DNA of 46,990 nt from Burkholderiales bacterium. GTDB lineage: Bacteria > Pseudomonadota > Gammaproteobacteria > Burkholderiales > Rhodocyclaceae. Below are positions 24,863 to 45,907 of the stretch, piece by piece. The first letter of the stretch is position 1, and each line of letters begins with the position of its first letter. The notes under the pieces are model-generated. The model was not told the DNA's origin and did not search any database. It saw only the letters and a program-made list of their open reading frames with translations. A program made the translations under genes and the position numbers. Where the stretch lies: NCBI GenBank assembly GCA_964203325.1, contig CAXNNH010000001.1, positions 1-46,990 of the forward strand, read 5' to 3'.

Positions 24863-24887
24863 AGGCCGCGTCTGGAAGCTCGCCAAC

Positions 24888-28518: not shown

Positions 28519-30602
28519 TGAGCGATCAGGCCTTTCTCGTCCTGGCCATACAGGCCAGCAACATCGCCTCGCTGGTGGCGGCCCTGATTACCTTACTGTT
28601 ACTGGGCAAGTCGTTGCGCGATTTCAGCCAGACCGGGCCGCCGTTGGGCCGCGAAGTGCTGCGCCATTACCGTGGCGCGCTGGCGCTCAGCCTGGCCAGA
28701 CTGGGGCTGGCGGCGTTCCTGCTGGCCAACCTGCTTGCCTTGCCCGGCAGCTTTATCTATCTATCCAGTCTGGCCCTGTTCCAGCTACCCTTCCATCCGT
28801 TGGCTGCGGCTGCGGCCGCCCTGGCTTCGCTGGCCTTGCTGCTGCTGTTCCAGTTCTGTCGGGTGCTGCATGATTCGCCGGGCATCATCGTTGCCTCCTC
28901 GCATTACGCGATGCCTCGCTTCTATCCCCTCTGGGAGAAGCTGTCGCCTACTCTGCTTCAGCGCTGGTCGAACTGGGGTAGCGGCATCTATATCGGCTGG
29001 GTGTTGCTGGGAATCGCCGCGCTGTTCTGGCAGGGCGCTGTCTATTCCGCGCTGGCGTTGTTCATGCTGCACGGCCTCGCCTTGCTGTTCTACCAAATCT
29101 GGATCGCGGAGAGTGAGCCACTGCCGCTACCCGCGACGTCCGCTCGAAAGCGGCGCAATCTGCTGATGATCGGCTCCGATACCCTGCGTGCGGATCGCCT
29201 CGGGCTGGCCGGTTATCACCGCGACCTGACTCCCAACCTCGACCGCCTGGCTGCGCGCGGAGTCGCCCTCAGCCATTGTTATGTGCCGTGCGCAAGAACC
29301 GCGCCCAGTCTGCTCTCGCTGTTTACTGGCAGCTGGCCGCATAGCCATGGCGTGCGCGACAACTTTGTCAGCGATAACGACAGCTACCTGACCCAGGCTG
29401 CCCTGCCCGAATTGCTTGCGGCCGCCGGCTACCAGACTGCGGCAGTCGGCGACTGGGCGGCTTCCGATCTGTCCAAGTTCAATTTGGGCTTCCAATCACT
29501 GGATGTGCCGGCGGATCAATGGAACCTGAAATTCCTCCTGCGCCAGGGCCCCAAGGACATCCGTCTGTTTCTTTCCCTGTTCATCGACAACCGTATCGGC
29601 AAATTCTTTCTTGAAGAGATCTATTACCTGGGTGGGGTGCCGCTGACCCGCCAAATCGGACTTCGCTCTCGCCAGATGCTGGAACACCTGGGCTCCGACG
29701 AGCGGCCATTCTTCCTCAATGTGTTCATGGCCAGCACACATCCACCTTTCGCTAGTGAATACCCTTACTACACGATGTATGCCGATCCCGCTTATCGGGG
29801 GCCGTCCAAGTTCGCGATGGCCAAGCTGACCGAGCCGTTCGAGATCATCCGCCGACAGGGCGAGCCGCGTGAGGAATTCGACCTGGAACAGATCATTGAT
29901 CTCTACGACGGCTGTGTGAAGAGTTTTGATGACGAGCTCGGTCGTATCCTCGACTACCTGGATGCAAGTGGGCTGGCTCAGGAGACCCTGGTGGTGGTGT
30001 ACAGCGACCATGGGATGGAATTCTTCGAGCATGAGACCTGGGGCCAGGGCAACTCCGCGATTGGCGATTTTTCGGCGCGTGTTCCGGTTGTCATGGCCGG
30101 ACCGACACTGGCGACGGGATGCCGCCTGGACGGTGTGACCCGCAGCATCGATCTGGCGCCCAGCCTGCTGGAACTCCTGGATCTGCCCATCGCCTCGACG
30201 ATGGAGGGTGTCTCACTTGCGGCGGCCATGCGCGGCGCGCCGTTGCCGGAGCTACCTGCTTTCTACGAAACAGGCATCTGGCTGACGACGTTGCCAGGCA
30301 CGCCACCTGGCCACCTCAGCTATCCGGGCATTCTCGAGTTGCTCGAAGTACCCGATCTGTCTACCGGCACACTGGCGGTTAAGCGCGCCTATCAGGAGGC
30401 GGTGGTCGCCGCCAAGGATCGCATGGTTCGCCTTGGCCACTGGAAGCTAGTCTGCCAGCCACTCGTGAACGGTGAATTGCTGCGTCTCTATAACCTGCGG
30501 ACAGATCCGGAATGCCGCATCGACGTGTCGGAACAGCATCCAGAAATCGCTAGTCGGCTTTGGGGTCTACTCCGGGCGTGGATGGGGTTGCCGCTGGATT
30601 GA
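28518..30602 (+). CDS. Membrane-anchored alkaline-phosphatase-superfamily ('sulfatase-like') hydrolase/transferase
   Basis: Start taken at ATG 28518 (MSDQAFLVLAIQ), overlapping the upstream TGA by 1 nt. About 190 aa form several hydrophobic helices. The catalytic domain follows: LLMIGSDTLRADRLG...TPNLDRLAARGV...CARTAPSLLSLFTG. The nucleophile position aligns to Thr (T-A-P-S-L), not to the C/S-x-P-x-R of formylglycine sulfatases. Confidence 0.75.
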   Translation: MSDQAFLVLAIQASNIASLVAALITLLLLGKSLRDFSQTGPPLGREVLRHYRGALALSLARLGLAAFLLANLLALPGSFIYLSSLALFQLPFHPLAAAAAALASLALLLLFQFCRVLHDSPGIIVASSHYAMPRFYPLWEKLSPTLLQRWSNWGSGIYIGWVLLGIAALFWQGAVYSALALFMLHGLALLFYQIWIAESEPLPLPATSARKRRNLLMIGSDTLRADRLGLAGYHRDLTPNLDRLAARGVALSHCYVPCARTAPSLLSLFTGSWPHSHGVRDNFVSDNDSYLTQAALPELLAAAGYQTAAVGDWAASDLSKFNLGFQSLDVPADQWNLKFLLRQGPKDIRLFLSLFIDNRIGKFFLEEIYYLGGVPLTRQIGLRSRQMLEHLGSDERPFFLNVFMASTHPPFASEYPYYTMYADPAYRGPSKFAMAKLTEPFEIIRRQGEPREEFDLEQIIDLYDGCVKSFDDELGRILDYLDASGLAQETLVVVYSDHGMEFFEHETWGQGNSAIGDFSARVPVVMAGPTLATGCRLDGVTRSIDLAPSLLELLDLPIASTMEGVSLAAAMRGAPLPELPAFYETGIWLTTLPGTPPGHLSYPGILELLEVPDLSTGTLAVKRAYQEAVVAAKDRMVRLGHWKLVCQPLVNGELLRLYNLRTDPECRIDVSEQHPEIASRLWGLLRAWMGLPLD

Positions 30603-31472: not shown

Positions 31473-32627
31473 TCATACAAGCGAACGGGTTTTGTTCGCC
31501 ACTGAATCCCAGCTGAATTCAGTGCGTGCACGGGCGAGGCCGGCATCGGCCAGTCGCGCCGCAAAAACGGCATCGTTTAAAACAGCGCAAAGGGCAGAGG
31601 TGACTAATTCTTCACGATGGCCGTCAATGCGTAAACCCGTTTCGCCATCCACCACTGCCGCTGCGGTGCCACCGGCATCTCCGGCAATAGCAGGCTTGCC
31701 GCAGGCCGCCGCTTCCAGGAACACCATGCCGAAACCCTCTGTGTCACCGTTGATCTCGCGGTTCGCCATGACAAAAACGTCGCAGGCGTTGTACCAGCGC
31801 GGCAGGTCTTCCGGGCTGACATGGCCGAGCAGATGCAGGCGCTCGGATACGCCCAGTTCTTTCGCTAGTTCAGACAAGTAGTCCCAGTCTTCGCCGATGC
31901 CGATGAGTGCGTAATGAACGTCAATGCTCTGTTTGACCAATTCAGGCAGCGAGCGAATGACCTGGTCGAAACCTTTACGACGCACCAGGCGCCCCACCGA
32001 CAAAATCAGTTTCTGCCCGGTTTGCAGGCCAATGGATTGTTTGAGGTCTTCACATGGCAGGCCAGGGCGGAAGCGTTCGGTCTCGACGCCGGGGTAGATC
32101 AAAGTAATGGTTTCGCGCCGCACGCCAAGCTTGACCATTTCTTCCAGCGTGTATTCGCTGTTGGCGATGTTGGCATCGGCATGCCGGTAAACCCAGAGCA
32201 TGGTGCGGAATTTGCGCCCGCGTCCCCAAGTGGAGAGTTCTTCGCCGTGGCAGTAGACCACCAGCGGCTTACGCAATAGGCGCGCCATGATCCAGGCCAC
32301 CAGGCCTTCAGGCAGCGCGCGGGCACCGTGGACTGCGTCGAATTTGTTGTTGAACGCTACCAGCAGCGATTTGCCGAGCATTTTCAGATACATGCCGAGT
32401 GATTCCGGTTTCAGCCACCAGACCCGTTTGAGCCCGACTCGATGAATGCTGTTGGAGTGGATCCGGTCGATGGCGGCAGCATTGGGCACATCGGCGGTAA
32501 TGATATGCACGCCTTTACCCCCCATCCGGCGATAGACGGCGTCATACCAGACGGTAGTGCCACCTTTCGTGGGCAGGAACAATTCGGAGATGACCAGCAG
32601 ACGGGATAGAGGCGGCGCAGGTTTCAC
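31473..32627 (-). CDS. Family 4 (GT-B) glycosyltransferase
   Basis: LLVISELFLPTKGGT at the N-terminus and TEGFGMVFLEAAACGKPAIAGDAGG (E-x7-E) at the C-terminus. Confidence 0.8.
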   Translation of the reverse strand: MKPAPPLSRLLVISELFLPTKGGTTVWYDAVYRRMGGKGVHIITADVPNAAAIDRIHSNSIHRVGLKRVWWLKPESLGMYLKMLGKSLLVAFNNKFDAVHGARALPEGLVAWIMARLLRKPLVVYCHGEELSTWGRGRKFRTMLWVYRHADANIANSEYTLEEMVKLGVRRETITLIYPGVETERFRPGLPCEDLKQSIGLQTGQKLILSVGRLVRRKGFDQVIRSLPELVKQSIDVHYALIGIGEDWDYLSELAKELGVSERLHLLGHVSPEDLPRWYNACDVFVMANREINGDTEGFGMVFLEAAACGKPAIAGDAGGTAAAVVDGETGLRIDGHREELVTSALCAVLNDAVFAARLADAGLARARTEFSWDSVANKTRSLV

Positions 32628-33811
32628 GGGCGGAGTTCAGATCGAGCAAACAGGTTGAGCAATGGGAGCAGACCGGTCAGGCGCGCCGCCTTGCCAAAAC
32701 GCGGCAGGCAGGCAATACGCCGAAGCCAGATGGTAAACCGGCATCGAGGGTCTTGCTCGATCCAGTTTGCGTCTCCGGTTCTGATCGCGCGCCCGAGTTC
32801 AGCCGGTGAGGCGAAACGCAGATTCGGGAAATCGTGCAGCGCACGGGTAAAGAGATCATCCAGCGCAGCCAATGCGGCGGTCGGATTGCCACCAGCTTCG
32901 GTCAGGAAATTGCTGCGATGGGTTTCCAGCAAGCAGGGGCGGCCCAGTGCGGTTTTACGCGCCAGCGCGGCCAGCGCTTGTTCTGGCCGATGTCCGAATA
33001 CCGGCTCGAAGTAATCGTCGCGCACCAGGTAGATCACATCCCCCGCGCCTCGGTCACCATTCAGCATGGTCTTGTCCTGGCAACCCGGTTTCCCGTCTGC
33101 ATCCCGACAAGTCAGCCTGCGCCCCGGTGTAATAACCACCGCCACCCCCTGGTTCGCCCAAGCCGCCTCAACCCGAGAATCCCAGACAAAAGTAGGCGGC
33201 ACCACCACCAAATCCGTAGCTCCTACATTTAGCGCCTTGAACAACCCCACTTCTTCCGCAACGGCTGCTTGAATTTCCTCAAGCTTATGGGGCTTTGAAG
33301 GGAGATTTGCCGCATTGGTCCAGCGGCTTTGCAGGTGTGACGGAAGCTGTTCCGTGAGTTCGGGTTTATTTAGCCAGATGCGGACTTCAGGTTGCTCGCG
33401 AGCGGCTTCTTGCACGCTATCCGGCCAGAAATGCATCATGCCGTGCAGTTGCACGGCGAAGACGCCTTGCGTTTGGCCACTGAGAATGGAATTCAGAACA
33501 GGAAGCTGATTGGCATCCGCCAACGTCACTTTTCCAGCCATTTCAGGTTTCGGAATGGCCAGAATCAGCGCTAGCGTCATGCATGCCGGGCGTCCGGTTA
33601 CGTCATGATGTCGGTTAAGACAGGCTGCTAATTCAGTCAGCGCGTTGGCCTGCGTGAGCGGGCCGGCGCCCCAGTCATCGCTTTCAACTATCAGAATCGG
33701 CGCTTTGAAGGCGGGTTCACGCCAGAGGGCAAGAAGAGGGCCACGAAAGGCGAGCAACAGGCCAGCAGCTAAAGACAGCCAAGCTAGGACAACAAAGAAG
33801 AGCAGGGTCAT
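32624..33811 (-). CDS. N-terminally membrane-anchored protein, deacetylase/glycoside-hydrolase-fold-like, function unknown
   Basis: One TM segment (LLFFVVLAWLSLAAGLLLAF), then ILIVESDDWG, VQLHGMMHF and LLETHRSNF. The His/Asp-rich motifs are reminiscent of the DUF2334/CE4-like fold. Confidence 0.35.
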   Translation of the reverse strand: MTLLFFVVLAWLSLAAGLLLAFRGPLLALWREPAFKAPILIVESDDWGAGPLTQANALTELAACLNRHHDVTGRPACMTLALILAIPKPEMAGKVTLADANQLPVLNSILSGQTQGVFAVQLHGMMHFWPDSVQEAAREQPEVRIWLNKPELTEQLPSHLQSRWTNAANLPSKPHKLEEIQAAVAEEVGLFKALNVGATDLVVVPPTFVWDSRVEAAWANQGVAVVITPGRRLTCRDADGKPGCQDKTMLNGDRGAGDVIYLVRDDYFEPVFGHRPEQALAALARKTALGRPCLLETHRSNFLTEAGGNPTAALAALDDLFTRALHDFPNLRFASPAELGRAIRTGDANWIEQDPRCRFTIWLRRIACLPRFGKAARLTGLLPLLNLFARSELRP

Positions 33812-33881
33812 GTATCGGGGAATTGTCTGTGAAGCGGCGAATTGGCGATCAGTTTAACAGCGCTCGTTTGGCGCTCCTGCT

Positions 33882-33916
33882 ATGCGCATCATCTGAAAAG
33901 AATGCGCATGTACAAT
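33882..33916 (+). promoter_or_regulatory. Twin ATGCGCAT palindromes abutting a TACAAT -10-like hexamer in the divergent intergenic region
   Basis: ATGCGCAT occurs at 33882-33889 and at 33902-33909, 20 nt apart. TACAAT lies at 33911-33916, about 45 nt upstream of GTG 33962, which has an AAGGGAG Shine-Dalgarno sequence. Confidence 0.25.
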
Positions 33917-33961
33917 CCCGCCGCGCAAAGTCTGGTGTTGTTTCGGTAAGGGAGAAAATTC

Positions 33962-34906
33962 GTGTCCAGCTTGTCCATTGTCATTCCCGTTTACCGTGCG
34001 GAAGAAACCCTGTGCGAGTTGTATCGCCGCTTGGTTGCCGTGTTGGAGACGGAGAGAATCGAGTTCGAGATTCTTTTCGTCGAGGATTGTGGCGGTGATC
34101 GCTCCTGGGAAGTGATTCAGGCTCTTGCCACCGATGACTCGCGTGTGCGCGGGTTTCGCATGTCACGCAACTACGGCCAGCACAGCGCTCTGTTATGCGG
34201 TATCCGCGCGGCCCGGAACGAAATCGTGGTCACTTTGGACGACGATTTGCAGAATCCCCCTGAGGAAATTCCAAAGCTGCTGGCGAAGTTGGCAGAAGGC
34301 TACGACATGGTCTACGGAACCCGTGAGCAGGAGCGCCACGGTTTCCTGCGCGACATGGCTTCGCGTGTCACTAAATGGGCGTTGCAGAGCGCGATGGGCG
34401 CGCAAACGGCTCGTAACGTCAGCGCCATGCGCACCTTTCGCACCGAGTTGCGCGAGGCGTTTGCCGATTACCGAAGTCCCACCGTCAATCTGGATGTCTT
34501 GCTCACCTGGGGCACCACCCGTTTCGGCTCAGTGCGGGTAAAGCATGAAGCGCGTCTGATCGGCGAGTCCGGATACACCCTGCGCAAGCTGATCACCCAT
34601 GCAGTAAACCTGACCACCGGTTTTTCCACTCTGCCGCTTCAGGTCGCCAGCGTCATGGGCTTCATCTTCGCGTTGTTCGGCTTTCTTATCTTGGGCTATG
34701 TGTTGTTCCGCTATGCGCTTTACGGCAGTGTGGTCCCAGGTTTTCCTTTCCTTGCGTCACTTATTGCCATCTTTTCCGGGGTGCAATTATTCGCTCTAGG
34801 CATTATTGGCGAGTATCTGGCGCGCATGCATTTTCGAACCATGGATCGACCGGCCTATTTGGTACGGGAGCAGGTCGGTCAACCCGCAAGGAAATCTGAA
34901 ACATGA
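33962..34906 (+). CDS. Polyprenyl-phosphate glycosyltransferase (GT2, ArnC/GtrB/DPM1-like) with two C-terminal TM helices
   Basis: Segment-by-segment resemblance to remembered E. coli ArnC: SIVIPVYRAEETL, SRNYGQHSAL, TLDDDLQNPPEEIPKLLAKLAEGYDMV, GESGYT and GIIGEYLARMHFRTMDRPAYLV. Confidence 0.85.
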   Translation: MSSLSIVIPVYRAEETLCELYRRLVAVLETERIEFEILFVEDCGGDRSWEVIQALATDDSRVRGFRMSRNYGQHSALLCGIRAARNEIVVTLDDDLQNPPEEIPKLLAKLAEGYDMVYGTREQERHGFLRDMASRVTKWALQSAMGAQTARNVSAMRTFRTELREAFADYRSPTVNLDVLLTWGTTRFGSVRVKHEARLIGESGYTLRKLITHAVNLTTGFSTLPLQVASVMGFIFALFGFLILGYVLFRYALYGSVVPGFPFLASLIAIFSGVQLFALGIIGEYLARMHFRTMDRPAYLVREQVGQPARKSET

Positions 34907-35748
34907 AAATTCTGATTCTGGGGGGGACCCGCTACATGGGTCGCGCCGCCGCCAGGCGCCTGTCGACGGCGGGGCACGAGGTAATCAGCGTTAGCCGCAC
35001 TCCGATTGAGGGCGGTACGATCCGGCATCGGGTCTGCGATCGCAAGGATGGCGCCGCCTTGGATGCACTGGTGCGCGAGGAGGAACCCTCGGCCATACTG
35101 GACATGGTTTGTTTCGACGCTGGTGACGGCGCCGGTATGGCGCGTCTGTTCGAGTCCGGCGCGCTGTCGGGCTTGCGCCACTACCTGATGGTTTCCACCT
35201 TCTTTCCCTACAACTACTTCGACGCGCGCGAAGCCCCGTTTGCGGGCGACCCGACGGCGATCGCGGATGGTTACACGCGGCGTAAGGTGGAAGCGGAGGC
35301 AATCATCAAGGCTGGCGCCTTGTTCGGCAGGAGTTCGATCCTGCGCCTGCCATTCGTCTTCTCCCATGACGACTACACGGGAAGGTTTCAACGTCTCTGC
35401 GAAATGGTGCGAGATGGCCGGGTTGCGGCGACGGGTACGTCGTCCTGGCGTACGTCGATGATTGCCATGGAAGACGCGGCAGGAGCACTTGCGAATATTC
35501 TGCAAGGCCCGCCGTTGGGGTACGCCGACATTGCTAACGCCGGCTGCTTGACCGCGCATGAAATCGCCGCTGTTGTTGCCGCGGCACTGGACTGTTCCTG
35601 TGAGTTCAACGGCGCGGACGACCCCGGTACGATCTATGGGCTCAGCCGCGATCTCTGCCTGGATTCGGCCAAATCGCCGAAGCTGCGTCCCCTGGCCGAA
35701 GCACTGGCCGACGAAGCGAAACAATGGAGCACACAACATGGCGATTAA
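34903..35748 (+). CDS. NAD(P)-binding Rossmann-fold protein (atypical/extended SDR, epimerase/reductase-like)
   Basis: MKILILGGTRYMGRAAARRL is a GGTxxxG nucleotide-binding motif. 281 aa; ATGA-coupled to the upstream gene. Confidence 0.6.
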   Translation: MKILILGGTRYMGRAAARRLSTAGHEVISVSRTPIEGGTIRHRVCDRKDGAALDALVREEEPSAILDMVCFDAGDGAGMARLFESGALSGLRHYLMVSTFFPYNYFDAREAPFAGDPTAIADGYTRRKVEAEAIIKAGALFGRSSILRLPFVFSHDDYTGRFQRLCEMVRDGRVAATGTSSWRTSMIAMEDAAGALANILQGPPLGYADIANAGCLTAHEIAAVVAAALDCSCEFNGADDPGTIYGLSRDLCLDSAKSPKLRPLAEALADEAKQWSTQHGD

Positions 35749-36739
35749 AGTCCTGGTTAGCGGCGCCGGCGGCGATGTCGGGCAGGGGGTATTGAAGGCG
35801 CTGGCCGCGTCATCCCTCGATATCGAGGCCCACACCACCTGCATTGGCCCGCACAGTTCCTGGTTGTACCAGCCGGGCGTCAACAGCTTCATCGCCCCCC
35901 TGTCCGCTGCCGAGGACTATGTTCCTTTCCTGATCCGCCTGATCCGACGCCATGGCATTCAGGTGTTCTTCCCCACCGTGGACGGAGAAATCACCAAGAT
36001 CGCGCGAGAAAAAGCACGCATCGAAGGCGAGACCGGATGCCTGGTGTTCGTGGATGGCGAAGACAAAGTCGCGGTCAGCGACGACAAGTTCAACACCGCC
36101 GAATTTCTCCGCGGTCATGGTTTTGCCTACCCTGCTTCGGCCATCGCCGTCGGCCCGCAAGCCCATGCGCTGGCCGACCGGCTCGGCTTCCCGCTGATCG
36201 TCAAGAAACGTAGCGGCAAGGGCTCCCAGGATGTGTTCCTGGTTCGGGATTCGGCGGAACTGGAACGCCGCCTGGGCGACCCTTCCTTCGTCGTCCAGGA
36301 GTGGCTGGACCCCGAACAGGGCGAGTACACCTCCGGCCTTTATCTCGGCGATGATGGCGAGATAAAGGGTGTCTGTACTTTCCGCCGCCAGCTTAAAGGC
36401 GGCTCCACCTACATCGCCGAACGCATCATCGACCCTGCGCTGGAACAGCCGCTGGAACGCATCGCCCGGACCCTGGGCATGAAGTATCTGAACATCCAGT
36501 CGATGCGCCGGGGTGACGAACTGGTGCCGTTCGAATTCAACGGCCGCCTCTCCGGCACCACTGCAATGGTATCCAGGGTGTTCAACGCCCCGGAGATGTT
36601 TATCCGCGAGCGACTTCTGGGCGAGCGACTCGCGCGCGTGGACAACACGACGCGCTTTGTCGCCATGCGTTACTACGAGGAGGTCTACGCGAATCCGGAA
36701 CAAGTGGACGCCCTCATCGCACGGAGCACCGAAATATGA
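35738..36739 (+). CDS. ATP-grasp ligase (carbamoyl-phosphate-synthase-L-like ATP-binding fold)
   Basis: Start taken at the internal ATG 35738 (MAIKVLVSGAGGDVGQG). PLIVKKRSGKGSQDVFLV holds the ATP-binding Lys. VVQEWL is present and FEFNGRLSG is the E-x-N-x-R Mg/ATP motif. Confidence 0.7.
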   Translation: MAIKVLVSGAGGDVGQGVLKALAASSLDIEAHTTCIGPHSSWLYQPGVNSFIAPLSAAEDYVPFLIRLIRRHGIQVFFPTVDGEITKIAREKARIEGETGCLVFVDGEDKVAVSDDKFNTAEFLRGHGFAYPASAIAVGPQAHALADRLGFPLIVKKRSGKGSQDVFLVRDSAELERRLGDPSFVVQEWLDPEQGEYTSGLYLGDDGEIKGVCTFRRQLKGGSTYIAERIIDPALEQPLERIARTLGMKYLNIQSMRRGDELVPFEFNGRLSGTTAMVSRVFNAPEMFIRERLLGERLARVDNTTRFVAMRYYEEVYANPEQVDALIARSTEI

Positions 36740-37422
36740 CCGCCTGCGTGCTGTTCGATTTCGCCGACACCTTGGCGGAGCTGCATCCCAACCGTATGGA
36801 TATCGTTGCCGATTACATCCTCACCGTCGGCGGCATCCAGATCGGTCAGGACGCCATTGCCCGCGCCTATAAGTCGGTCGACCTGCTGTTGCCCTACAGT
36901 TCGGTGAAGACCCGCACCCAGGCGCAGCGGGACGAGTTCTATCGGGAATACAACCGTCAGTTGTTCGTCCTGCTCGGCGTCGCCCATCGCGCCGATCCCG
37001 CCGGCCTGATCGCCGCCTTCGGTGAACGCCGCGCACACTGGGCGCTCAAGCCGGGCGTTCGCGACACCCTTGCCGAACTGCGCCGACGCGGCTATCGCAT
37101 CGGCATCATCTCCAACTTTGACAGCCGCCTGGAACAGGTGGTCTACGAGTTCCTCGGCCTTGCCGGTACGGTCGATTACCTGCACATCTCGCAGACCGAG
37201 GGCGTGGAGAAGCCCGACCCACGGTTCTACCTCGGTTTCTTTGAGCGGCATGGCCTGGATATCGAACAATCGGTCTATGTCGGCGACAGCTACACCCTGG
37301 ATTTCCTGCCCGCCAGCGGCATCGGCCTCAAGGCCTGGTTGCTCGATGAGGCCGGCCTATATCCGCATTTACCCGAGGCGATCCGTGACATTGCCGAATT
37401 GCCTGGCCTGCTGCCCGCATGA
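36736..37422 (+). CDS. HAD-superfamily hydrolase (subfamily IA-like)
   Basis: Motif I is CVLFDFADTL (nucleophile Asp). IGIISNFD is present and motif IV is VYVGDSYTLD. Confidence 0.65.
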   Translation: MTACVLFDFADTLAELHPNRMDIVADYILTVGGIQIGQDAIARAYKSVDLLLPYSSVKTRTQAQRDEFYREYNRQLFVLLGVAHRADPAGLIAAFGERRAHWALKPGVRDTLAELRRRGYRIGIISNFDSRLEQVVYEFLGLAGTVDYLHISQTEGVEKPDPRFYLGFFERHGLDIEQSVYVGDSYTLDFLPASGIGLKAWLLDEAGLYPHLPEAIRDIAELPGLLPA

Positions 37423-37802
37423 GCACACAAGTCCAGATGCTGCGCTTCGCGCTGGTGGGTCTGGCCTCCAACGCGGTGCTGTATCTGGTTTATCTCGGCA
37501 TGACCACCGCCGGACTCGGCCCCAAGCTTGCCATGAGCCTGGTCTATGGCATCGGCGTGGCGCAAACCTTCTTATTCAACAAGCGCTGGACCTTTAATCA
37601 TTCTGGACGTTTCGATACCGCTTTGCTGCGCTATATCGCCGTCTATGCCGGCGGCTACGTCGCCAACCTGCTGGTGTTGGCCTGGCTGGTGGATGGGTTA
37701 GGTTATCCGCATCAGATTGTGCAGGGTGTGATGATTCTGACGCTGGCGGGTTGTTTCTTTCTGTTGCAAAAATTATGGGTATTCAGAACGGGGCGGATAT
37801 GA
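37419..37802 (+). CDS. GtrA-family small membrane protein (lipid-linked sugar translocation-associated)
   Basis: 127 aa with four hydrophobic segments. FALVGLASNAVLYLVYL...FLFNKRWTF is the GtrA family signature. Confidence 0.75.
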   Translation: MSTQVQMLRFALVGLASNAVLYLVYLGMTTAGLGPKLAMSLVYGIGVAQTFLFNKRWTFNHSGRFDTALLRYIAVYAGGYVANLLVLAWLVDGLGYPHQIVQGVMILTLAGCFFLLQKLWVFRTGRI

Positions 37803-38926
37803 ACATTCCATTCAACAAGCCTTACATGACCGGAAAAGAACTCTGGTACATCGCTCAAGCGCACCACAACGGCTGGCTGGCGGGCGATGGTGGGTTTACG
37901 AAACGCTGTAATACCTGGTTGGAGCAGCGTACCGGCGCACGTAAGGCACTGCTGACACATTCCTGCACGGCAGCGCTGGAAATGGCTGCCATCTTGGCCG
38001 ATATCCAGCCTGGCGATGAAGTGATCATGCCGTCTTACACTTTCGTCTCCACCGCCAACGCTTTCGTGCTGAGAGGTGCGGTGCCAGTGTTCGTAGACAT
38101 ACGCCCGGATACCCTGAATATTGATGAGACGCTGATCGAAGCCGCTATCACCGAAAAAACTCGCGCCATTGTTCCTGTGCATTACGCCGGCGTGGGCTGC
38201 GAGATGGATGCCATCATGGACATCGCCACACGGCACGGTCTGCTGGTCATCGAGGATGCTGCGCAAGGCATCATGTCGACTTACAAAGGGCGTCCATTGG
38301 GCAGCATCGGCCACCTCGCCGCGCTCTCCTTCCATGAGACCAAGAACATCATTTCCGGCGAGGGTGGCGCGCTGTTGGTGAATGACCCGGAACTGGCGGA
38401 GCGGGCCGAGATCATTCGCGAGAAGGGCACGAACCGCAGCCAGTTCTTCCGCGGGCAAGTCGACAAATACACCTGGGTGGACATCGGCTCTTCCTATCTA
38501 CCGAGCGAACTGATCGCCGCTTTCCTGTGGGCGCAGATGGAAGAAGCGGATGCCATCACGCGACGTCGCCTGGGCATCTGGCAGACTTACCACAGCGCTT
38601 TCGCTGATCTGGAACAGCGCGGCAAGGTACGCCGTCCGCAAGTGCCCGCCGACTGCGTCCACAACGCCCATATGTATCAGCTCCTGCTGCCCAGCCTGGA
38701 AAAACGCACAGCGTTCATTGCGACGCTGAAGTCGGGCGGCATCAGTAGCGTGTTCCACTATGTGCCGCTGCATTCGGCGCCCGCCGGACGCCTGCACGGT
38801 CGTGTATCAGGCGGCATGCGCCATACATTGGAACTGTCGGACCGCCTGGTCCGACTGCCGCTTTGGGTTGGGCTGGAAGATGACCAGAACGAGGTTATCC
38901 GCCAGGTCATCGCCGCCGCCGAATGA
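37799..38926 (+). CDS. wecE: dTDP-4-amino-4,6-dideoxy-hexose (TDP-4-oxo-6-deoxy-D-glucose) transaminase, WecE-type
   Basis: Start at ATG 37799 (MNIPFNKPYMTGKEL). Long near-identical runs to remembered E. coli WecE: GDGGFTKRCNTWLEQR, IQPGDEVIMPSYTFVSTANAFVLRGA, VFVDIRPDTLNIDETLIEAAIT, VPVHYAGV, FHETKN and AEIIREKGTNRSQFFRGQVDKYTWVDIGSSYL. Confidence 0.9.
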   Translation: MNIPFNKPYMTGKELWYIAQAHHNGWLAGDGGFTKRCNTWLEQRTGARKALLTHSCTAALEMAAILADIQPGDEVIMPSYTFVSTANAFVLRGAVPVFVDIRPDTLNIDETLIEAAITEKTRAIVPVHYAGVGCEMDAIMDIATRHGLLVIEDAAQGIMSTYKGRPLGSIGHLAALSFHETKNIISGEGGALLVNDPELAERAEIIREKGTNRSQFFRGQVDKYTWVDIGSSYLPSELIAAFLWAQMEEADAITRRRLGIWQTYHSAFADLEQRGKVRRPQVPADCVHNAHMYQLLLPSLEKRTAFIATLKSGGISSVFHYVPLHSAPAGRLHGRVSGGMRHTLELSDRLVRLPLWVGLEDDQNEVIRQVIAAAE

Positions 38927-38927
38927 C

Positions 38928-40367
38928 ATGAGCCGCCGTTATCTGCCCTGGGCGGTCGCTGCTCTGTACCTGTTGTTCCTGTTTCCGACGCCGGAGTTCC
39001 CACCCTACAACGCTGATGACGGTAGCTGGTTCGTCACCATCGGCTGGAATCTGGCGCAATACGGCCGCTATACCAGCGACACCTTCCCGCTTGCCGAATA
39101 CGGCCATCACGCCGCCTGGCCGCCGTTGTTCGCCGGTATTCTGGCCGGGGTGATCTCGCTTTTCGGTCTCAACTGGCTGGCGCTCAAGTTGCTGATGGCG
39201 CTGATCGGGCTGGGCGCGCTGGCGCTGCTGCTTCGCCTGTGGCGAGACGACTCACCCGGTGCTTGGGCGGTGCTGCTTACCGCGTTGAGCCCCGCGATAT
39301 TCCTCTTCAGCCACCACACCATGACTGAAATGCCCTATATCGCGGCGGTCAGCGCCGCGTTGCTGGGACTTTCCCACGCGAGCAGCGGCCGCGGCGCGTT
39401 TCTCGCCGGCCTGCTTGCGGTGCTGGCGTTCTTCACCCGAGGTTACGCGGTGATCTTTCTGCTCGCCGGGCCGCTTTATTTCATGTTGCGGCCCTGGCCC
39501 ATGCGGCAGCGCTTGATCGCCTGCCTGGCCTATATCCTTCCTCTGATCGTCGCAGTGTTTGTTTGGAAAGGCTACACCGGCCAGGTCATTGCCAACTTGC
39601 CGCTGGACTGGATCAGCGAGCGTTTTGGCAATGGCGCCGGCCTGCTGCAAAGCCTGCTACGTTCCCCGGTGGAGTATGCGCAGCGCCTGTACTGGTTTGA
39701 ACTGCGCTACCCCGCGCATTTCCTGTTGCCGCTGATTCCGCTTGAATGGGCCTTGCGGCATGACCTTGCATTGGCGCTTTCGCTGCCGCTTCTGGCCATC
39801 ATCGGCTATGGCTGGCTGACCCTGTTCCTGCGCCGGCGCGGCGCGGTGGAATGCTGGCTGCCGCTGGCGCTGGCATTTTTGCTGGTCCCAAGCAGCGGCG
39901 CCGCGCGTTACCTGATCCCCTTCCTGCCTTTTCTGTTCTATTACCTGTTGCATGGCCTGCGCGAGATCAGCCAGCGTCTGCCACGCCTGGCGTTGGCCGC
40001 ACGCCTGACGCCTTACGCGCTGCTGCTGGTGACTGGCACCGCTCTCGCCTGGCATCTGACCGCTCCGGATCAGCTGCGTTTTGTGTCGGCAGACAGCAAG
40101 GATTACCGTGATGTCGCGCTCTGGGCAGGCGCAAACCTGCCGTTGGATGCCGTGGTGCTGGCGCCGGCCTCGCATCGCTTCCTTGCGGCCAGCGGCCGAA
40201 ACACCTGGCCGATCGAGCGTTTGCCCGACCCGCCTGAAGCGATTCAGCGCGGCAACCGGCCGATCTATCTGCTGTGTACGCCCGAAACGCCAGCGGCCCG
40301 CTGCGCCGGACTGAGCAATCCGGTTCAGCGTCAGGGTCGCATCGCCTTACATATGATCCGGCCATAA
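38928..40367 (+). CDS. GT-C fold polytopic membrane glycosyltransferase (ArnT/PMT family 39/83-like)
   Basis: Start at ATG 38928 (MSRRYLPWAVAALYLLFLF), 1 nt after the wecE stop. About 12 hydrophobic segments. An acidic first-loop motif (YNADDGSWF) and a WPPLF motif are present. The C-terminal soluble domain is ~100 aa. Confidence 0.7.
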   Translation: MSRRYLPWAVAALYLLFLFPTPEFPPYNADDGSWFVTIGWNLAQYGRYTSDTFPLAEYGHHAAWPPLFAGILAGVISLFGLNWLALKLLMALIGLGALALLLRLWRDDSPGAWAVLLTALSPAIFLFSHHTMTEMPYIAAVSAALLGLSHASSGRGAFLAGLLAVLAFFTRGYAVIFLLAGPLYFMLRPWPMRQRLIACLAYILPLIVAVFVWKGYTGQVIANLPLDWISERFGNGAGLLQSLLRSPVEYAQRLYWFELRYPAHFLLPLIPLEWALRHDLALALSLPLLAIIGYGWLTLFLRRRGAVECWLPLALAFLLVPSSGAARYLIPFLPFLFYYLLHGLREISQRLPRLALAARLTPYALLLVTGTALAWHLTAPDQLRFVSADSKDYRDVALWAGANLPLDAVVLAPASHRFLAASGRNTWPIERLPDPPEAIQRGNRPIYLLCTPETPAARCAGLSNPVQRQGRIALHMIRP

Positions 40368-40385
40368 ACAACAAACCGGATTGAG

Positions 40386-41453
40386 TCAGCGCAGGTTGGA
40401 GTTACCTGCGGACTTCATTCTCTGCGTGATTGATTCAGTCCTGGCGAGCAAATCTCGCCTGATCTCCAGCGGCGTCATGCTCTGTCCATTCAATTCCCGC
40501 ATGAACCACTCGAAATAGCCGCGTGATTTTCCAAGGAAGCGGCTTAAATCGGCTTCGTTGCGAACATAGGGCGTGTAGCCAGGGTGAACCGACGGGGAGT
40601 GAAAGCTGAAGACGAAGATACGTTGGCCTTCATCCAACATGGCGCGTGTCATGCGTTGCATTTCCGCCAGCGTGTAGTCCTCGGGGGAGAGGCGGATGCG
40701 TTCGAAGGCACGCAGGCGGGAGGTGATGCCGGGTAGACGCGCCCAATTCAGTTTGGGATGAGTAATCAGGCGGTAGAACGGGGCGCCGGCGTTTTTCAGC
40801 CAGCCGGCGTAGCAGCCGCCGCCCGGTAGGCCGAGTAATTTGCGCTGTTGGCCGAACCAGAATGGTTCCGCGGTATAGCCTGAGTAATCCGGGCCGCCGT
40901 CACTGCTGTAGTCGATGGGGGGGGCGATGCTGATATCGACTTCGTAGCCGAGTTCTTCCAGGATGGCGGCGCTGTTGGGGCCGTTGCCGTAGCGGCCGGC
41001 CAGGTAGGTGAGGGGGCGTTTGCCGAAATTCTGTTCGATGGTGTCGGTAAGTTGGCGCACCTTTTCGTATTCGAGTTCGCGCGGCAGGTTGCCCGGGTAG
41101 GTATTGGCGCGTGTCAGTTGTTCGGTCAACGGCGGCGATACCCAGGGGTGCAGGTGGGTGCCGATCAGGGCGCGGCCTTCATCCTGATAGCGGCGCAGGG
41201 TCTCGTAGCCCAGCGGTTGACTGGCGATGGGGTAGTCGATGACGTAGTTGGGGACAATGCCGTAGGCGTCGAATATTTCCTGGGCGCGGCTGATGTGGCG
41301 CATGTGTTCGACGCCGATTTCCGTGCGCGAGTGTTCGCTGTTCCAGTCGAATTCTTCTTCGGTGTGGATGACCACCGACAGGATAGGGCGTGTATCGGCT
41401 GGAACAGCAATGTGTTGCGCGTTGGGGAAGAGGTCAGAGATCGAGGGCGACAT
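40386..41453 (-). CDS. Polysaccharide deacetylase-like protein (WalW-type)
   Basis: ILSVVIHTEEEFDWNS...GTHLHPWVSPP...VFSFHSPSV shows acid/His motifs of a deacetylase-fold family that I recall as 'WalW' in EPS loci. Confidence 0.5.
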   Translation of the reverse strand: MSPSISDLFPNAQHIAVPADTRPILSVVIHTEEEFDWNSEHSRTEIGVEHMRHISRAQEIFDAYGIVPNYVIDYPIASQPLGYETLRRYQDEGRALIGTHLHPWVSPPLTEQLTRANTYPGNLPRELEYEKVRQLTDTIEQNFGKRPLTYLAGRYGNGPNSAAILEELGYEVDISIAPPIDYSSDGGPDYSGYTAEPFWFGQQRKLLGLPGGGCYAGWLKNAGAPFYRLITHPKLNWARLPGITSRLRAFERIRLSPEDYTLAEMQRMTRAMLDEGQRIFVFSFHSPSVHPGYTPYVRNEADLSRFLGKSRGYFEWFMRELNGQSMTPLEIRRDLLARTESITQRMKSAGNSNLR

Positions 41454-42297
41454 ATTCTGAATAGAGGTTCTGGATGTCGGCTTCGCCCAGTGTGTCGCTG
41501 CAGAATACTCGGTGGCGGTAGCCTGTTAGTTCGGTGTGCGGCCAGGCGGGTTTGTTCGGCAGCAAGCGCGTTTCCACCCGCGTGGTTGCCATGCCTGAGA
41601 GCAGGAAGTGGCAGCCGAGAACGGGCAGGTATTGTTGAAAGGTATCCGGGTTGGTGAAGCCGATGATTTCGGCGCTGGGCAGGTTTTTCAGGCTGGCACG
41701 TTTGTAGATGACCAGACTGCGGTTGCTGCCTTTACCGACAGCGAGGAAGTTGAGCCAGGGGAAATGCTTGTGGTCTCGGTAGACTTTGGCCGATGCCGCG
41801 TCCAGCACGTGTTCGATGCGTTCCGGGTTGCTGACGATGCCCGCGCCGGTGAGGCGCTGATGCGGCGCCGGCAGGTTGAACAGCACGGTGCGCGCTTCGT
41901 TCATGGGTTTGAACTTGAGGAACTTGAGCGACTGCTCCACCACGGCGGTGGGGGATAGGTCGGTGAAGTGGAAGCCGGGTTGCGAGATCACCGCCATTGC
42001 GAGGCGCATGCTCTGGGTACGGTAGGCGTCGAGCACCATCCAGCTAGTGATGTTGCAGAACTGTTCGAGTTTGCCGCGAACCGGGTAGGCGCCGTAAATG
42101 GCGCCGATGCCGCCGACGATTTCTCCGGCTTCGTCACGGATCAAGAAGCCGTTGTTGGGCTTGTTTACGCCCCAGTTCTGGCGAAAGGCTTCTGCCCAGA
42201 TATCGGCTGGGTGGCTGGGGTTGAGGTGTTTGTGCAAAAAAGCGCAGAACGCCGGCAGATCCTCGTCGCGGATAGGTTCGAGTTTGGGCAGGGCCAT
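41434..42297 (-). CDS. GNAT-fold acyltransferase-like protein
   Basis: Start preferred at 42297 (MALPKLEPIRDEDLPAFCAFLHKHL). The central FLIRDEAGEIVGGIGAIY...ITSWMVLDAYRTQSMRLAMAV fits the GNAT beta4-alpha3 core. The gene overlaps the downstream deacetylase-like gene by 20 nt. Confidence 0.5.
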   Translation of the reverse strand: MALPKLEPIRDEDLPAFCAFLHKHLNPSHPADIWAEAFRQNWGVNKPNNGFLIRDEAGEIVGGIGAIYGAYPVRGKLEQFCNITSWMVLDAYRTQSMRLAMAVISQPGFHFTDLSPTAVVEQSLKFLKFKPMNEARTVLFNLPAPHQRLTGAGIVSNPERIEHVLDAASAKVYRDHKHFPWLNFLAVGKGSNRSLVIYKRASLKNLPSAEIIGFTNPDTFQQYLPVLGCHFLLSGMATTRVETRLLPNKPAWPHTELTGYRHRVFCSDTLGEADIQNLYSEYVALDL

Positions 42298-42419
42298 ATT
42301 GGTATTTGTGAGTCCGTGGGAGCGGCAAGACGTTAGCACAAAGGGCAATAAAACTGGGTTAAGCTCGCGACCCAAGAATTTTGGTGTTGGAGCAGTCTTT
42401 AGTTAGTTTTGAGCAGGGC

Positions 42420-42760: not shown

Positions 42761-44767
42761 ATGTCTAGCTTTCCTATTCCCGGCTTCGAACGTGACGCTC
42801 ATGGCAAACCGATCATCGGCCTGACTCCGGATGCGCTCTATGCCTATGGCCATCTGATCCGCTCCAGCGAGCTTTTGGTGCTTGATCAGTTTTCTCGCGG
42901 GTTGGTCTCCGGCACGACCCATACCTGCCTGGGCCAGGAAATCTGTGCGATGGCTGTGGTGCGGGCGCTGACGCATCCGGAAGATGCGGCATTGTCGAAT
43001 CACCGTAATCATGGTCATTTTCTGACCTATTCCGGTGAGTTCGTCGGCCTGGTGGCGGAGATCATGGGTCGCGCCGATGGCGCTTGCGGCGGGCGTGGCG
43101 GTAGTCAGCATCTGGTTTGGCGCCACTTTCATTCGAATGGTGTGCAAGGCGGCATGACCGGCATTGGCGCTGGCCTGGCTTTGGCGCGCAAGTTGCATGG
43201 CAGCGGTGCGGTGGTTGCCGCGATGATTGGCGATGGCACTTTGGGCCAGGGTTTGTTGTACGAGGCGATGAATCTGGCTTCGGTGTGGTCGGTGCCTTTC
43301 CTGGTGGTGGTGGAGAACAACGGCATTTCGCAAACCACGGAACCGCATCAAAACCTGGGCGGTGATATTCAGGCGCGCGGCGCGGCTTTCGGTTTGCAGA
43401 CCTGGCGGGTGGACGATGCTTCTGCCGATTTCTTCGAGCAAGTCGCGGCGGCGGTACAGCAGGTGCGCGAGAGCCAGCGGCCTGGCTTTTTGGTCATCGA
43501 TACCCGCCGCATGGGGCCGCATTCCAAGGGGGATGATCTGCGTGATGAGGCGGTGGTCGCCGCCATCCGCGAACGTGATCCGCTAACCGCGATGGGACGC
43601 CGGCTCTCGGATGCGGTGCGTGATGAAATTGAAGCGCGCAATGCTGCTTTCATCGAGGAGGTGAGGGAAGCCGCCAATGCTTCACCGGAAGCGCTTTGTG
43701 ACGATGCACCGGAACATATTTTCGACCGTGCCGGCGAGCTGGAAGGCCCGGTGCCAAGTTATCCGGTGGTGGCTGCGAAGACCAGCGTGCGCTTGTGCAT
43801 CAATGCCGCGTTGAATCATCTGTTGGCGACTTACCCGGAAACCATCGTGCTGGGTGAAGACCTGCATGATCCTTATGGCGGCGCTTTCAAGGTTACCCAG
43901 GGTTTGAGCACCGCCTATCCCGGTCGCGTGATTTCCACGCCGATTTCCGAAGCCGGCATTACCGGCGCCGCCATCGGCCTGGCGATGGATGGCTTCCGTC
44001 CGATTCTGGAAATCATGTTTGCGGATTTTCTTTCGCTGTGCATGGATCAGCTCTACAACCATGCGGTGAAGTTTCCCGGTGTGTTTCCGGAAGTGATGGT
44101 GCCGTTGATTCTGCGCACACCCTCCGGCGGCCGTCGCGGTTACGGTCCCACGCATAGCCAGAGCCCGGAGAACATCTTTACCGCGATACCGGGTTTGACC
44201 GTTCTTTACGGTAGTCATCGTCACGATGTTGCCCGGTTGCTGGTCGATGCGTCTCGCCGTTGGCCTTATCCGACGTTGTTTCTGGAACACAAGCTGCTGT
44301 ACGGCGAAACGCAGGATGCTGGCGGTTACGACATGCTCACGCCCGATCCGGATGACATCGCCGCCCATCTTTTCCCGACACTGATTCGTCGCCGCCCGGA
44401 CGCGGACCTGACGATTGTTGCCTATGGCGGCATGTTGCCGGTGGTGGAAGAAGCGGCGCAGCGCCTGGAAGACGAGGAGGAGTTGATGGTGGATATCGTC
44501 GTGCCTTCACTGCTTTCGCCGCTGCCGCGCCGCACTTTGCTGGCGCATCTGATGAGCAGCGAGAAGGTGGTGATCGCCGAGGAATCGCACCACGAATTCG
44601 GCATTGGTGCGGAAATCGCCGCTTGCCTGCTGGAAGCCGGTTTTCAAGGCCAGGCTTTCCGCATCGGCACGCCGCCGGTTCCCATCGCTTCCGCGCGCAG
44701 CCTGGAGCGCCAGATTCTGCCGGATGCCGATAAGCTGATCGAAGACATTCTGGATAACCTGTACTGA
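42761..44767 (+). CDS. Fused E1 alpha/beta thiamine-diphosphate-dependent 2-oxoacid dehydrogenase component
   Basis: 668 aa. The alpha part carries the TPP motif IGDGTLGQGLLYEAMNLASVWSVPFLVVVENNG (GDG-x26-NN). The beta part has VLGEDLHDPYGGAFKVTQGL, TPISEAGITGAAIGLAMDGFRPI and RGYGPTHSQS. Confidence 0.85.
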   Translation: MSSFPIPGFERDAHGKPIIGLTPDALYAYGHLIRSSELLVLDQFSRGLVSGTTHTCLGQEICAMAVVRALTHPEDAALSNHRNHGHFLTYSGEFVGLVAEIMGRADGACGGRGGSQHLVWRHFHSNGVQGGMTGIGAGLALARKLHGSGAVVAAMIGDGTLGQGLLYEAMNLASVWSVPFLVVVENNGISQTTEPHQNLGGDIQARGAAFGLQTWRVDDASADFFEQVAAAVQQVRESQRPGFLVIDTRRMGPHSKGDDLRDEAVVAAIRERDPLTAMGRRLSDAVRDEIEARNAAFIEEVREAANASPEALCDDAPEHIFDRAGELEGPVPSYPVVAAKTSVRLCINAALNHLLATYPETIVLGEDLHDPYGGAFKVTQGLSTAYPGRVISTPISEAGITGAAIGLAMDGFRPILEIMFADFLSLCMDQLYNHAVKFPGVFPEVMVPLILRTPSGGRRGYGPTHSQSPENIFTAIPGLTVLYGSHRHDVARLLVDASRRWPYPTLFLEHKLLYGETQDAGGYDMLTPDPDDIAAHLFPTLIRRRPDADLTIVAYGGMLPVVEEAAQRLEDEEELMVDIVVPSLLSPLPRRTLLAHLMSSEKVVIAEESHHEFGIGAEIAACLLEAGFQGQAFRIGTPPVPIASARSLERQILPDADKLIEDILDNLY

Positions 44768-44775
44768 GGAACACT

Positions 44776-45885: not shown

Positions 45886-45907
45886 TATATCAACCAAGGA
45901 AACCCGA

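Follow-up and report, generated by a model that had tools for sequence, protein, structure and literature searches.

A putative lipid-carrier glycosylation operon with its own WecE aminotransferase and a portable SDR/ATP-grasp/HAD cassette in a Burkholderiales bacterium

In a forward-strand stretch of 46,990 nt from a Burkholderiales bacterium of the Rhodocyclaceae (assembly GCA_964203325.1, contig CAXNNH010000001.1; the whole stretch is here called the window), we analysed an operon of seven genes, g1 to g7, at 33962-40367. An earlier sequence-only reading had likened this operon to the Arn and Gtr lipid-carrier systems, with a WecE sugar in place of their usual cargo. All seven open reading frames (ORFs) are on the plus strand, in frame and with single stops, and leave no usable intergenic space (Table 1). 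Four junctions are ATGA start/stop overlaps (34903, 36736, 37419 and 37799), g2 and g3 overlap by 11 nt (35738-35748), and a single nucleotide (38927) separates g6 from g7. An ORF check bore out the seven coupled genes and every junction listed in the sequence-only reading, from whose list only the ATGA at 37799, between the GtrA and WecE genes, had been absent. The starts used for g3, g6 and g7 sit within longer mechanical ORFs, and the lengths and N-termini of homologues agree with them. In a pattern scan of 33600-40700, no sign of a promoter or terminator within the operon rose above the level expected from shuffling. The labels GT2, SDR, ATP-grasp, HAD, GtrA and WecE are each backed by domain matches, with family E-values for these six proteins running from 5e-9 (the SDR) down to 1e-190; g7 was placed through its family and fold. 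A co-directional set of seven genes with junctions of at most 1 nt, in an order repeated on a second contig (L014), is far beyond chance. Overall, the operon is real and the earlier interpretation of it is supported, its checkable elements having all held.

Table 1. Genes of the operon at 33962-40367.
Gene	Positions	Strand	Length (aa)	Assignment and features
g1	33962-34906	+	314	GT2 of the ArnC/GtrB type; GTG start with an AGGGAG Shine-Dalgarno-like sequence 5′
g2	34903-35748	+	281	Atypical/extended SDR-like oxidoreductase; first gene of the cassette
g3	35738-36739	+	333	ATP-grasp protein of the PRK12767 'carbamoyl-phosphate-synthase-like' family
g4	36736-37422	+	228	HAD-superfamily hydrolase, REG-2/HDHD3-like
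g5	37419-37802	+	127	GtrA-family small membrane protein
g6	37799-38926	+	375	WecE, dTDP-4-keto-6-deoxy-D-glucose 4-aminotransferase
g7	38928-40367	+	479	GT-C-fold membrane glycosyltransferase of a rare family

The g1 protein has the build of a polyprenyl-phosphate glycosyltransferase. It matches PF00535 in Pfam (5.8e-29), keeps the motifs LDDDLQNPPEEI (in comparison with PDB sequences) and LDxDLQNPPEEI, and carries two C-terminal transmembrane helices (221-240 and 252-272). Its nearest PDB sequences are ArnC (9hwj, 9bhc and 8vxh; 169-180 bits, full length), followed by Synechocystis GtrB (5ekp, 143 bits) and then DPMS; the rank of the solved ArnC structures ahead of GtrB agrees with the label 'ArnC-like' that g1 had been given. 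In NCBIfam, g1 matches the ArnC model NF007986 over its full length (6.5e-57), yet scores 193 (192.9) bits against a cutoff of 529; the second match is PgfS (2.4e-47), and g1 is under every equivalog cutoff. The g1 protein is predicted to form an amino-deoxyhexose linked to undecaprenyl phosphate (Und-P). The small protein g5 matches PF04138 across the full profile (1.5e-19), has ∼3 transmembrane segments by a crude hydropathy count, and is predicted to be the flippase, or a flippase cofactor, for the Und-P-sugar.

The aminotransferase g6 had been called very WecE-like. Indeed, it passes the NCBI cutoffs for WecE but fails that for ArnB: g6 scores 632 bits against TIGR02379 (cutoff 435) and 631 bits against NF008687 (cutoff 375), compared with 210.5 bits against the ArnB model NF008658 (cutoff 631). 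It matches E. coli WecE (4piw) at 522 bits and keeps the pyridoxal phosphate-lysine motif SFHETKN. By these tests g6 is a genuine WecE, with a dTDP-4-amino-4,6-dideoxyhexose of the Fuc4N type as its likely product.

Direct family assignment of g7 failed with Pfam (no match even at E = 10), with NCBIfam (no match) and with both single-sequence and profile searches of PDB sequences. The family is rare, with 30 homologous clusters in 5.8 billion proteins. We call g7 a GT-C because of family-wide PMT_2 matches and structure comparison, not matches of its own sequence. When aligned family members were taken individually, 24 of 26 matched PF13231 PMT_2 (best 3e-9), and an AlphaFold (AF2) model on the family alignment (pLDDT 88, pTM 0.88) gave as top Foldseek match ArnT with bound undecaprenyl phosphate (5f15; E 8e-8, TMq 0.61). 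Next in the ranking were the catalytic subunits of oligosaccharyltransferases (OSTs), ALG12, AftA and Pmt4, the OSTs with lower TM-scores. Residues 20-31 of g7 form a family-invariant stretch, PxPE(F/Y)PxYNxDD (E23, N28, D30 and D31 invariant), which would fit the acidic motif expected in the first loop of GT-C enzymes. The C-terminal domain is small (∼75 aa), and the WWDYG/WWD motif is absent from g7 and 26 family members. Given the missing WWDYG motif and ArnT as top structural match, we discarded g7 as an OST or O-antigen ligase-type enzyme, the identity that the sequence-only reading had itself raised as fatal to its case. The label 'ArnT/PMT-like GT-C' is upheld at the level of family and structure: as modelled, g7 is best placed among GT-C enzymes with the ArnT/PMT type of structure, without demonstrable membership of the ArnT family, and is predicted to be a periplasmic transferase with an Und-P-sugar donor.

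We compared the neighbourhoods of ∼35 sampled loci. Those with g7 homologues come from Hydrogenophilales-type metagenome-assembled genomes (Hydrogenophilales, Thiobacillus, Tepidiphilus) and related metagenome contigs. WecE lies directly 5′ of a g7-type GT-C in eight intact loci (the window, L003, L005, L006, L007, L017, L018 and L019), with a gap of 1 nt where coordinates were read, and in six of these eight (all except L018 and L019) the pair is preceded by GT2 and GtrA, the latter replaced in L003 by an ArnE/F-like protein. The other genes surrounding GT2, GtrA, WecE and GT-C are reshuffled between loci. This persistence of the WecE-GT-C adjacency links the GT-C with the product of WecE far more firmly than the window does by itself.

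The position between GT2 and GtrA varies with the locus. It holds a WecD-like GNAT in L006-L009 and L017, a NeuD/VioB-type acetyltransferase in L005, and an SDR/ATP-grasp/HAD cassette (g2-g4) in the window and L014; six of seven g7-bearing relatives keep GtrA, and in these six an N-acetyltransferase occupies this slot, as against the cassette in the window. Judged by their families, these acetyltransferases probably take the 4-amino group of the WecE sugar as their target, which in most relatives would leave the sugar N-acetylated and neutral. The layout of the window, including its upstream flanks, is repeated on L014 over all that this contig covers. The seven genes, flagged earlier as a set to look for in other genomes, are not one unit: the operon is a four-gene GT2/GtrA/WecE/GT-C core plus a portable SDR/ATP-grasp/HAD cassette.

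Gene order in the related loci illustrates the reshuffling. L005 has GT2, the NeuD/VioB-type LbH acetyltransferase, GtrA, WecE and GT-C; L003 has GT2, an unknown gene, WbqC, the ArnE/F-like gene, WecE and GT-C, its flippase slot being filled by an SMR protein (ArnF-like, 2.3e-12) in place of GtrA. L017 reads GT2, GNAT, GtrA, LbH, DegT and GT-C; L018 reads WecE, GT-C and GT2; and L019 has DegT and GT-C. In L008 the order is GT-C, GT2, WecD-like GNAT, GtrA, membrane protein, WecE and a second PMT_2 protein. L009 (Tepidiphilus sp. J10) has GT2, WecD-like GNAT, GtrA, membrane protein, WecE and a 38-aa GT-C remnant: the first 38 codons of a g7-type GT-C (10001-10114) are followed by an unrelated multi-transmembrane protein of 550 aa, suggesting that the transferase gene was replaced in situ. 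L006 and L007 share the order GT2, WecD-like GNAT, GtrA, LAL-type ATP-grasp (LAL_C2), second GT2, LPG_synthase_TM, WecE and GT-C, and the module inserted between GtrA and WecE (L006 5496-8763; L007 5573-8786) may be a second lipid-linked decoration pathway. Membrane proteins of 380-621 aa in L008, L009, L010, L011 and L015 were considered as kin of g7; hmmsearch with the g7-family A1 profile gave no significant match, and five of the membrane proteins of this size from related loci had no match in Pfam.

The SDR g2 has weak epimerase-family matches (PF01370, 4.8e-9; PF04321, 1.9e-7), a GGTRYMG nucleotide motif and YTRRK as its YxxxK motif. Its orthologues in L010, L014 and L015 are 74-78% identical, and other SDR types take its position in L011/L016 and in L012. 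The ATP-grasp protein g3 matches PF02655/PF08443 and, just under the cutoff of 218 bits, the 'carbamoyl phosphate synthase-like protein' model NF009402 (5.1e-62, 209.6 bits). Its AF2 model has a pLDDT of 94, and Foldseek placed the uncharacterised structural-genomics protein 2pn1 first (TM 0.82), with PurK at 0.7. The residues invariant in the g3 family (K156, E266 and N268) probably form the nucleotide/Mg site, by analogy, and g3, with >200 homologues, is predicted to be an ATP-dependent ligase or carboxylase acting on an amino sugar. The hydrolase g4 matches PF00702 (6.9e-20) and, under its cutoff, TIGR02252 (1.5e-25), and keeps the nucleophile Asp8 and motifs II-IV. PDB sequence searches with g2, g3 and g4 returned generic or uncharacterised entries only (2pn1, HDHD3) and were set aside as clues to function.

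Across loci the cassette keeps its order. The HAD gene lies directly 3′ of the ATP-grasp gene in every locus with downstream sequence, and an SDR gene lies directly 5′ of this pair wherever the upstream gene was examined; the SDR is of three kinds, namely g2-like, extended, and classical with 210-220 aa. As in the window, where the cassette is paired with g6, WecE orthologues (58-95% identity) accompany it in L010, L012/13, L014, L021, L024, L026, L037 and L038. In L021, WecE directly follows the HAD gene, and in L031, L042 and L043 a short DegT-family ORF lies directly 3′ of it. In L012/13, the cassette stands alongside a WecF-type GT56 and Wzx, without the GT2/GtrA pairing. From this distribution, the cassette is a portable unit, mainly but not exclusively linked to 4-amino-6-deoxyhexose genes and independent of Und-P delivery. 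We found no description of it in the literature searched (ATP-grasp with Qui4N or O-antigen, and WbqC).

Several variants of the cassette were seen. In one protein (P0132, 562 aa), a g3 homologue is fused to a classical SDR domain (PF00106), a fusion that supports functional coupling of the ATP-grasp protein with the SDR. In the low-GC locus L026 (200-10167), the cassette lies between RmlB-RmlA-WecE and a set comprising a NeuB-like synthase, a class-III aminotransferase and a CMP-sugar-type cytidylyltransferase; thus, it is also found in loci making nonulosonic-acid-type sugars. In L010 (1-6211; Gallionellaceae), a FAD_binding_4 protein, a 538-aa membrane protein, an adh_short protein and an epimerase-type SDR are encoded 5′ of a near-identical g1-g4 block, an upstream set that recalls, by analogy, the DprE1/DprE2-style epimerisation of lipid-linked sugars. 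L010 also carries a 621-aa protein with 12 transmembrane helices and no family match.

Together, these results make it probable, if short of secure, that the operon encodes a lipid-carrier three-component machinery that glycosylates in the periplasm and whose sugar is the WecE product. The architecture is of the three-component Gtr/Arn type, since a GT2 with a transmembrane pair, a GtrA protein and a GT-C with the acidic motif are all present. The comparison with the Arn/Gtr scheme drawn in the sequence-only reading is in this respect supported by the identities of g1, g5, g6 and g7 and by the conserved synteny of the core. We propose that g6 would aminate dTDP-4-keto-6-deoxyglucose, made by rmlA/rmlB encoded elsewhere, to give the Fuc4N-type dTDP-4-amino-4,6-dideoxyhexose. 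The g2-g4 proteins would then tailor the nucleotide sugar. The likeliest reaction would derivatise the 4-amino group in an ATP-dependent, coenzyme A (CoA)-independent manner by way of an acyl- or carboxy-phosphate, and the HAD protein and the SDR would trim or redox-adjust the group so added. Next, g1 would move the sugar onto Und-P, g5 would aid its flipping across the membrane, and g7 would be the periplasmic transferase that attaches it, most probably as a cap or side branch, to the polysaccharide of the Wzt-type cluster next to the operon. We infer the substrates and the order of the steps. Family and fold identity together with conserved synteny make the core steps quite likely, whereas the N-derivatisation of the amino sugar by the cassette, proposed from its position and co-occurrence, is tentative. 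Under a CoA-independent route, hydroxyacyl, aminoacyl, formyl or carbamate-type substituents are possible. The most far-reaching version of the proposal would make the cassette a previously unrecognised, widespread CoA-independent derivatisation route for dTDP-4-amino-4,6-dideoxyhexoses, with the unusual sugar so made being brought here to the cell surface by the first three-component Und-P system for a 4-amino-6-deoxyhexose, through a new GT-C family; we regard this version as doubtful.

A number of observations weigh against the proposed pathway. No match of the g7 sequence to ArnT or to PF02366/PF13231 was found in Pfam (to E = 10), NCBIfam or PDB searches. A scan of the window ORFs found neither rmlA nor rmlB, as the sequence-only reading had said; of precursor genes, the window has only pieces of those for a GDP-mannose dehydratase and for an Fcl-like epimerase (1069-2570). 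The acceptor is deduced from the neighbourhood of the operon. Identity to the GNAT-type loci is 77% for g1 and 79-84% for g5, similar to the 81-83% of the flanking GT4, so that the divergence of g1 and g5 gives no sign of a specificity shift with the cassette swap and would argue against a large change of the head group. The fold of g3 is about equally near the N-carboxylases (PurK, biotin carboxylase, carbamoyl-phosphate synthase) and the carboxylate-amine ligases (PylC, PurT, ArgX, RizA). In canonical HAD phosphatases, the residue at Asp+2 is the general acid; motif I of g4 is FDFADT, and an Ala at Asp+2 in 7/7 orthologues is atypical for phosphatases. The cassette also coexists with acetyltransferases encoded directly after the HAD gene in L010 (GNAT), L012/13 and L037 (both LbH), which refutes the idea that it simply replaces an N-acetyltransferase. 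Finally, L016 has a lone cassette (7091-9694) whose ATP-grasp protein is 83% identical to g3, with no glycan gene within 8 kb and genes for an aldehyde dehydrogenase, a chromate transporter, an amidase and a peptide ABC transporter as neighbours; a strict dependence of the cassette on WecE is refuted by this stand-alone copy.

The last two of these observations also favour a different role for the cassette, in which the cargo of the core is unmodified Fuc4N, or Fuc4NAc whose acetylating enzyme is encoded at another site, and the cassette merely travels with such loci while acting on something else, for example a separate non-sugar substituent. The three types of SDR partner and the lack of extra divergence of g1 and g5 from the GNAT-type loci fit such a role, and there is a precedent for an ATP-dependent ligase and a HAD protein acting on a polymer, not on a nucleotide sugar: in the Campylobacter jejuni HS:2 capsule, the ATP-dependent amidoligase Cj1438C acts before the HAD phosphatase Cj1435 (PMC11800397). 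Likened by description, the two systems share the succession of an ATP-dependent ligase and a HAD hydrolase that adds an amide-linked group to a glycan. They differ in that the C. jejuni sugar (glucuronic acid) gives the carboxylate, with serinol phosphate or ethanolamine phosphate as the amine, on the growing polymer (PMC11800397), and g4 is without the canonical Asp+2. However, the cassette of the window is placed between g1 and g5 and translationally coupled to both, a WecE or DegT-family gene is beside or near it in 12 or more loci, spanning organisms of high and of low GC content, and in the window and L014 it holds the position of the relatives' sugar N-acetyltransferase. We consider an unrelated role for the cassette possible, though somewhat unlikely.

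A second alternative retains the whole machinery and changes the acceptor: g7 would have a true ArnT-like role, transferring the sugar to lipid A or core as a charge-modifying decoration of the envelope. ArnT tops the structural matches of g7, g1 is nearest to ArnC, the L003 flippase is ArnE/F-like, and a free or unusual amine is possible in the window operon, which is without an N-acetyltransferase. Against this, the operon and its relatives lie in or adjoin large polysaccharide clusters (with Wzt, Wzx, WbsX and many glycosyltransferases), the N-acetyltransferase of most relatives would remove the positive charge, g7 lacks membership of the ArnT family at the sequence level, and GT-C folds do not predict acceptors. 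A lipid A or core acceptor is, on balance, distinctly unlikely. The cationic character that the sequence-only reading had thought possible for the decoration is conceivable but gains no support from these comparisons.

We also compared the operon with the whole Arn pathway (ArnA/B/C/D/E/F/T), by which L-Ara4N is added to lipid A. Shared with it are a DegT-family sugar 4-aminotransferase, an ArnC-type GT2, a small flippase component, an ArnT-like GT-C fold and, plausibly, an N-modification between amination and lipid loading. Nevertheless, the operon is not a member of the Arn pathway, because ArnA and ArnD are not matched by any of its proteins, the ArnB and ArnC equivalog tests fail (g1 being below the ArnC threshold) and the likeness of g7 to ArnT is structural only. 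Further differences are the aminotransferase, which is WecE and not ArnB and so implies a dTDP-6-deoxyhexose in place of a UDP-pentose as substrate, the GtrA flippase, the position of the operon inside a polysaccharide cluster, and the cassette, which has no Arn counterpart.

A third possibility is that the WecE product goes to a glycosyltransferase that builds the main chain in the cytoplasm, that GT2, GtrA and GT-C carry an ordinary hexose, and that the adjacency of WecE and GT-C is coincidental. Classical GtrB-type enzymes use UDP-glucose, g1 is below all equivalog cutoffs, and sequence does not reveal sugar specificity. This is improbable given the eight intact loci with WecE directly before a g7-type GT-C despite rearrangement, the WecD-like dTDP-Fuc4N acetyltransferase between GT2 and GtrA in five loci, and the failure to find a WecF-type GT56 among the scanned window ORFs. 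It is very improbable that g7 acts on proteins, be it as an O-glycosyltransferase or as an oligosaccharyltransferase (PMT, Pgf or PglB-like), since neither the PMT_2 matches of its family, the OSTs that follow ArnT in the fold ranking nor the second-best NCBIfam match of g1 to PgfS, from a protein glycosylation system, offsets the lack of WWDYG in the family, the C-terminal domain of just ∼75 aa, the OST TM-scores below that of ArnT and the polysaccharide-cluster context.

In enterobacterial common antigen (ECA), Fuc4NAc is added in the cytoplasm by WecF onto Und-PP-linked lipid II. The window operon shares with the WecE/WecD/WecF route a bona fide WecE, and relatives add WecD-like GNATs and, in L012/13, the WecF-type GT56. 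The operon is nevertheless not ECA biosynthesis, because WecD, WecF, WzxE and WzyE are absent; WecG is also lacking in the window, which has instead the hallmarks of Und-P-monosaccharide delivery. In line with this, no GT56, WecD-like GNAT, Wzx or Wzy was matched among the scanned window ORFs.

We also compared the operon with Gtr (GtrA/GtrB/GtrC) systems, in which a polyprenyl-phosphate GT2, a small flippase protein and a GT-C are likewise encoded together and act after export. Known Gtr-type systems add glucose, galactose, GlcNAc or pentofuranoses from UDP-sugars or phosphoribosyl pyrophosphate, and Klebsiella O2 galactosylation is a Gtr-type system that acts on an ABC-transporter O-antigen. 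Three-component systems are known on ABC-transporter-dependent O-antigens, including the Citrobacter youngae pentofuranose system (PMC11127046). The present operon differs in its built-in, dedicated WecE (with a WecD-like acetyltransferase in relatives) and in a GT-C that forms a separate rare family. In the literature searched (Fuc4NAc with GT-C), we found no description of an Und-P/GT-C system for the WecE product.

The nearest biological parallel for the class of sugar would be, by analogy, the wxc cluster's region 3 in Xanthomonas campestris, where the branch sugar is said to be a 3-amino one (Fuc3NAc) and WxcN reportedly is GtrA-like. There, the wxcK aminotransferase and the wxcN small membrane protein are needed for the FucNAc branches of the rhamnan O-antigen (PMC4878081). 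Common to both systems would be a side branch of a dTDP-derived acetamido-dideoxyhexose and a main chain made independently of the branch (PMC4878081). No SDR/ATP-grasp/HAD cassette is described for wxc, which was likened to our operon by description.

Two elements are new here, namely a rare GT-C family tied to WecE and a widely distributed, uncharacterised SDR/ATP-grasp/HAD cassette. Much of the diversity of surface antigens, and much resistance to phage and serum, stems from three-component glycosylation in the periplasm, and the donors characterised so far are common hexoses, N-acetylglucosamine (GlcNAc), 4-amino-4-deoxyarabinose (Ara4N), galactosamine (GalN) and pentofuranoses. If our reading is true, the scheme would be extended to dTDP-derived 4-amino-6-deoxyhexoses through a WecE owned by the module, and a rare GT-C family, new to science, would be defined whose donor can be predicted. 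The cassette may matter more widely, since it has >200 homologues, adjoins WecE/DegT genes in bacteria that are not related to one another, and is given no function in the literature searched. How it works, once understood, would probably account for some of the unusual N-substituted amino-deoxy sugars of O-antigens and capsules, and would be an added tool for glycoengineering. Direct practical importance is modest for the source organism, seemingly an environmental betaproteobacterium of Hydrogenophilales-like affinity.

Upstream of the operon, ∼2.5-30.6 kb of the window is taken up by a very large polysaccharide cluster. It encodes an ABC ATPase of the Wzt type that has a C-terminal domain, a further DegT aminotransferase with an LbH acyltransferase, about a dozen GT2/GT4 proteins, WbsX and two deacetylase-family proteins. 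In the midst of the glycosyltransferase genes lies one for an Apiosidase-like/DUF5060 glycoside-hydrolase-type protein of 563 aa (9307-10998). A sulfotransferase (PF13469; 26661-27617) and a methyltransferase (24699-25706) inside this O-polysaccharide-type cluster hint that the glycan is sulfated and/or methylated, and perhaps capped. At 28518-30602 is a membrane-anchored sulfatase/LtaS-type protein with ∼5 N-terminal transmembrane helices and a PF00884 domain; its gene is conserved beside the locus in L005 and L014 and present in L008, and the protein could likewise decorate the polysaccharide, by transferring a phospho-substituent in the periplasm. Gene remnants make up the cluster edge before the Wzt gene (600-2570). 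The N-terminal part of an ABC-ATPase is at 612-950; at 1069-1659 a Bro-N domain is joined in frame with a piece of GDP-mannose 4,6-dehydratase, which runs on in another frame (1545-1889); and at 2124-2570 lies a fragment of an Fcl-like epimerase. The first 7 kb are mosaic in GC content (0.40-0.57), which together with the remnants suggests past rearrangement or insertion at this edge.

The operon is abutted by a divergent pair encoding a GT4 and a 395-aa protein with an N-terminal transmembrane helix (32624-33811); the latter is conserved divergently upstream in L003, L005, L006, L007, L009 and L014. Downstream are two minus-strand genes (40386-41453 and 41434-42375), conserved in L003, L004 and L009. 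The products of 32624-33811, 40386-41453 and 41434-42375 had no match in Pfam, NCBIfam or PDB sequences, so an ArnD-like deacylase among these three flanking proteins had no family or PDB match to back it and was discarded. Further downstream, 42761-46171 encodes a fused E1 alpha-beta 2-oxoacid dehydrogenase (668 aa), an E2 protein (369 aa) and, at 45908-46171, a product with a weak phosphopantetheine-attachment match (acyl carrier protein-like). This E1/E2/carrier-protein-like set is conserved together downstream in L003, L004 and L009, and may generate an acyl donor linked to the neighbouring flanking genes.

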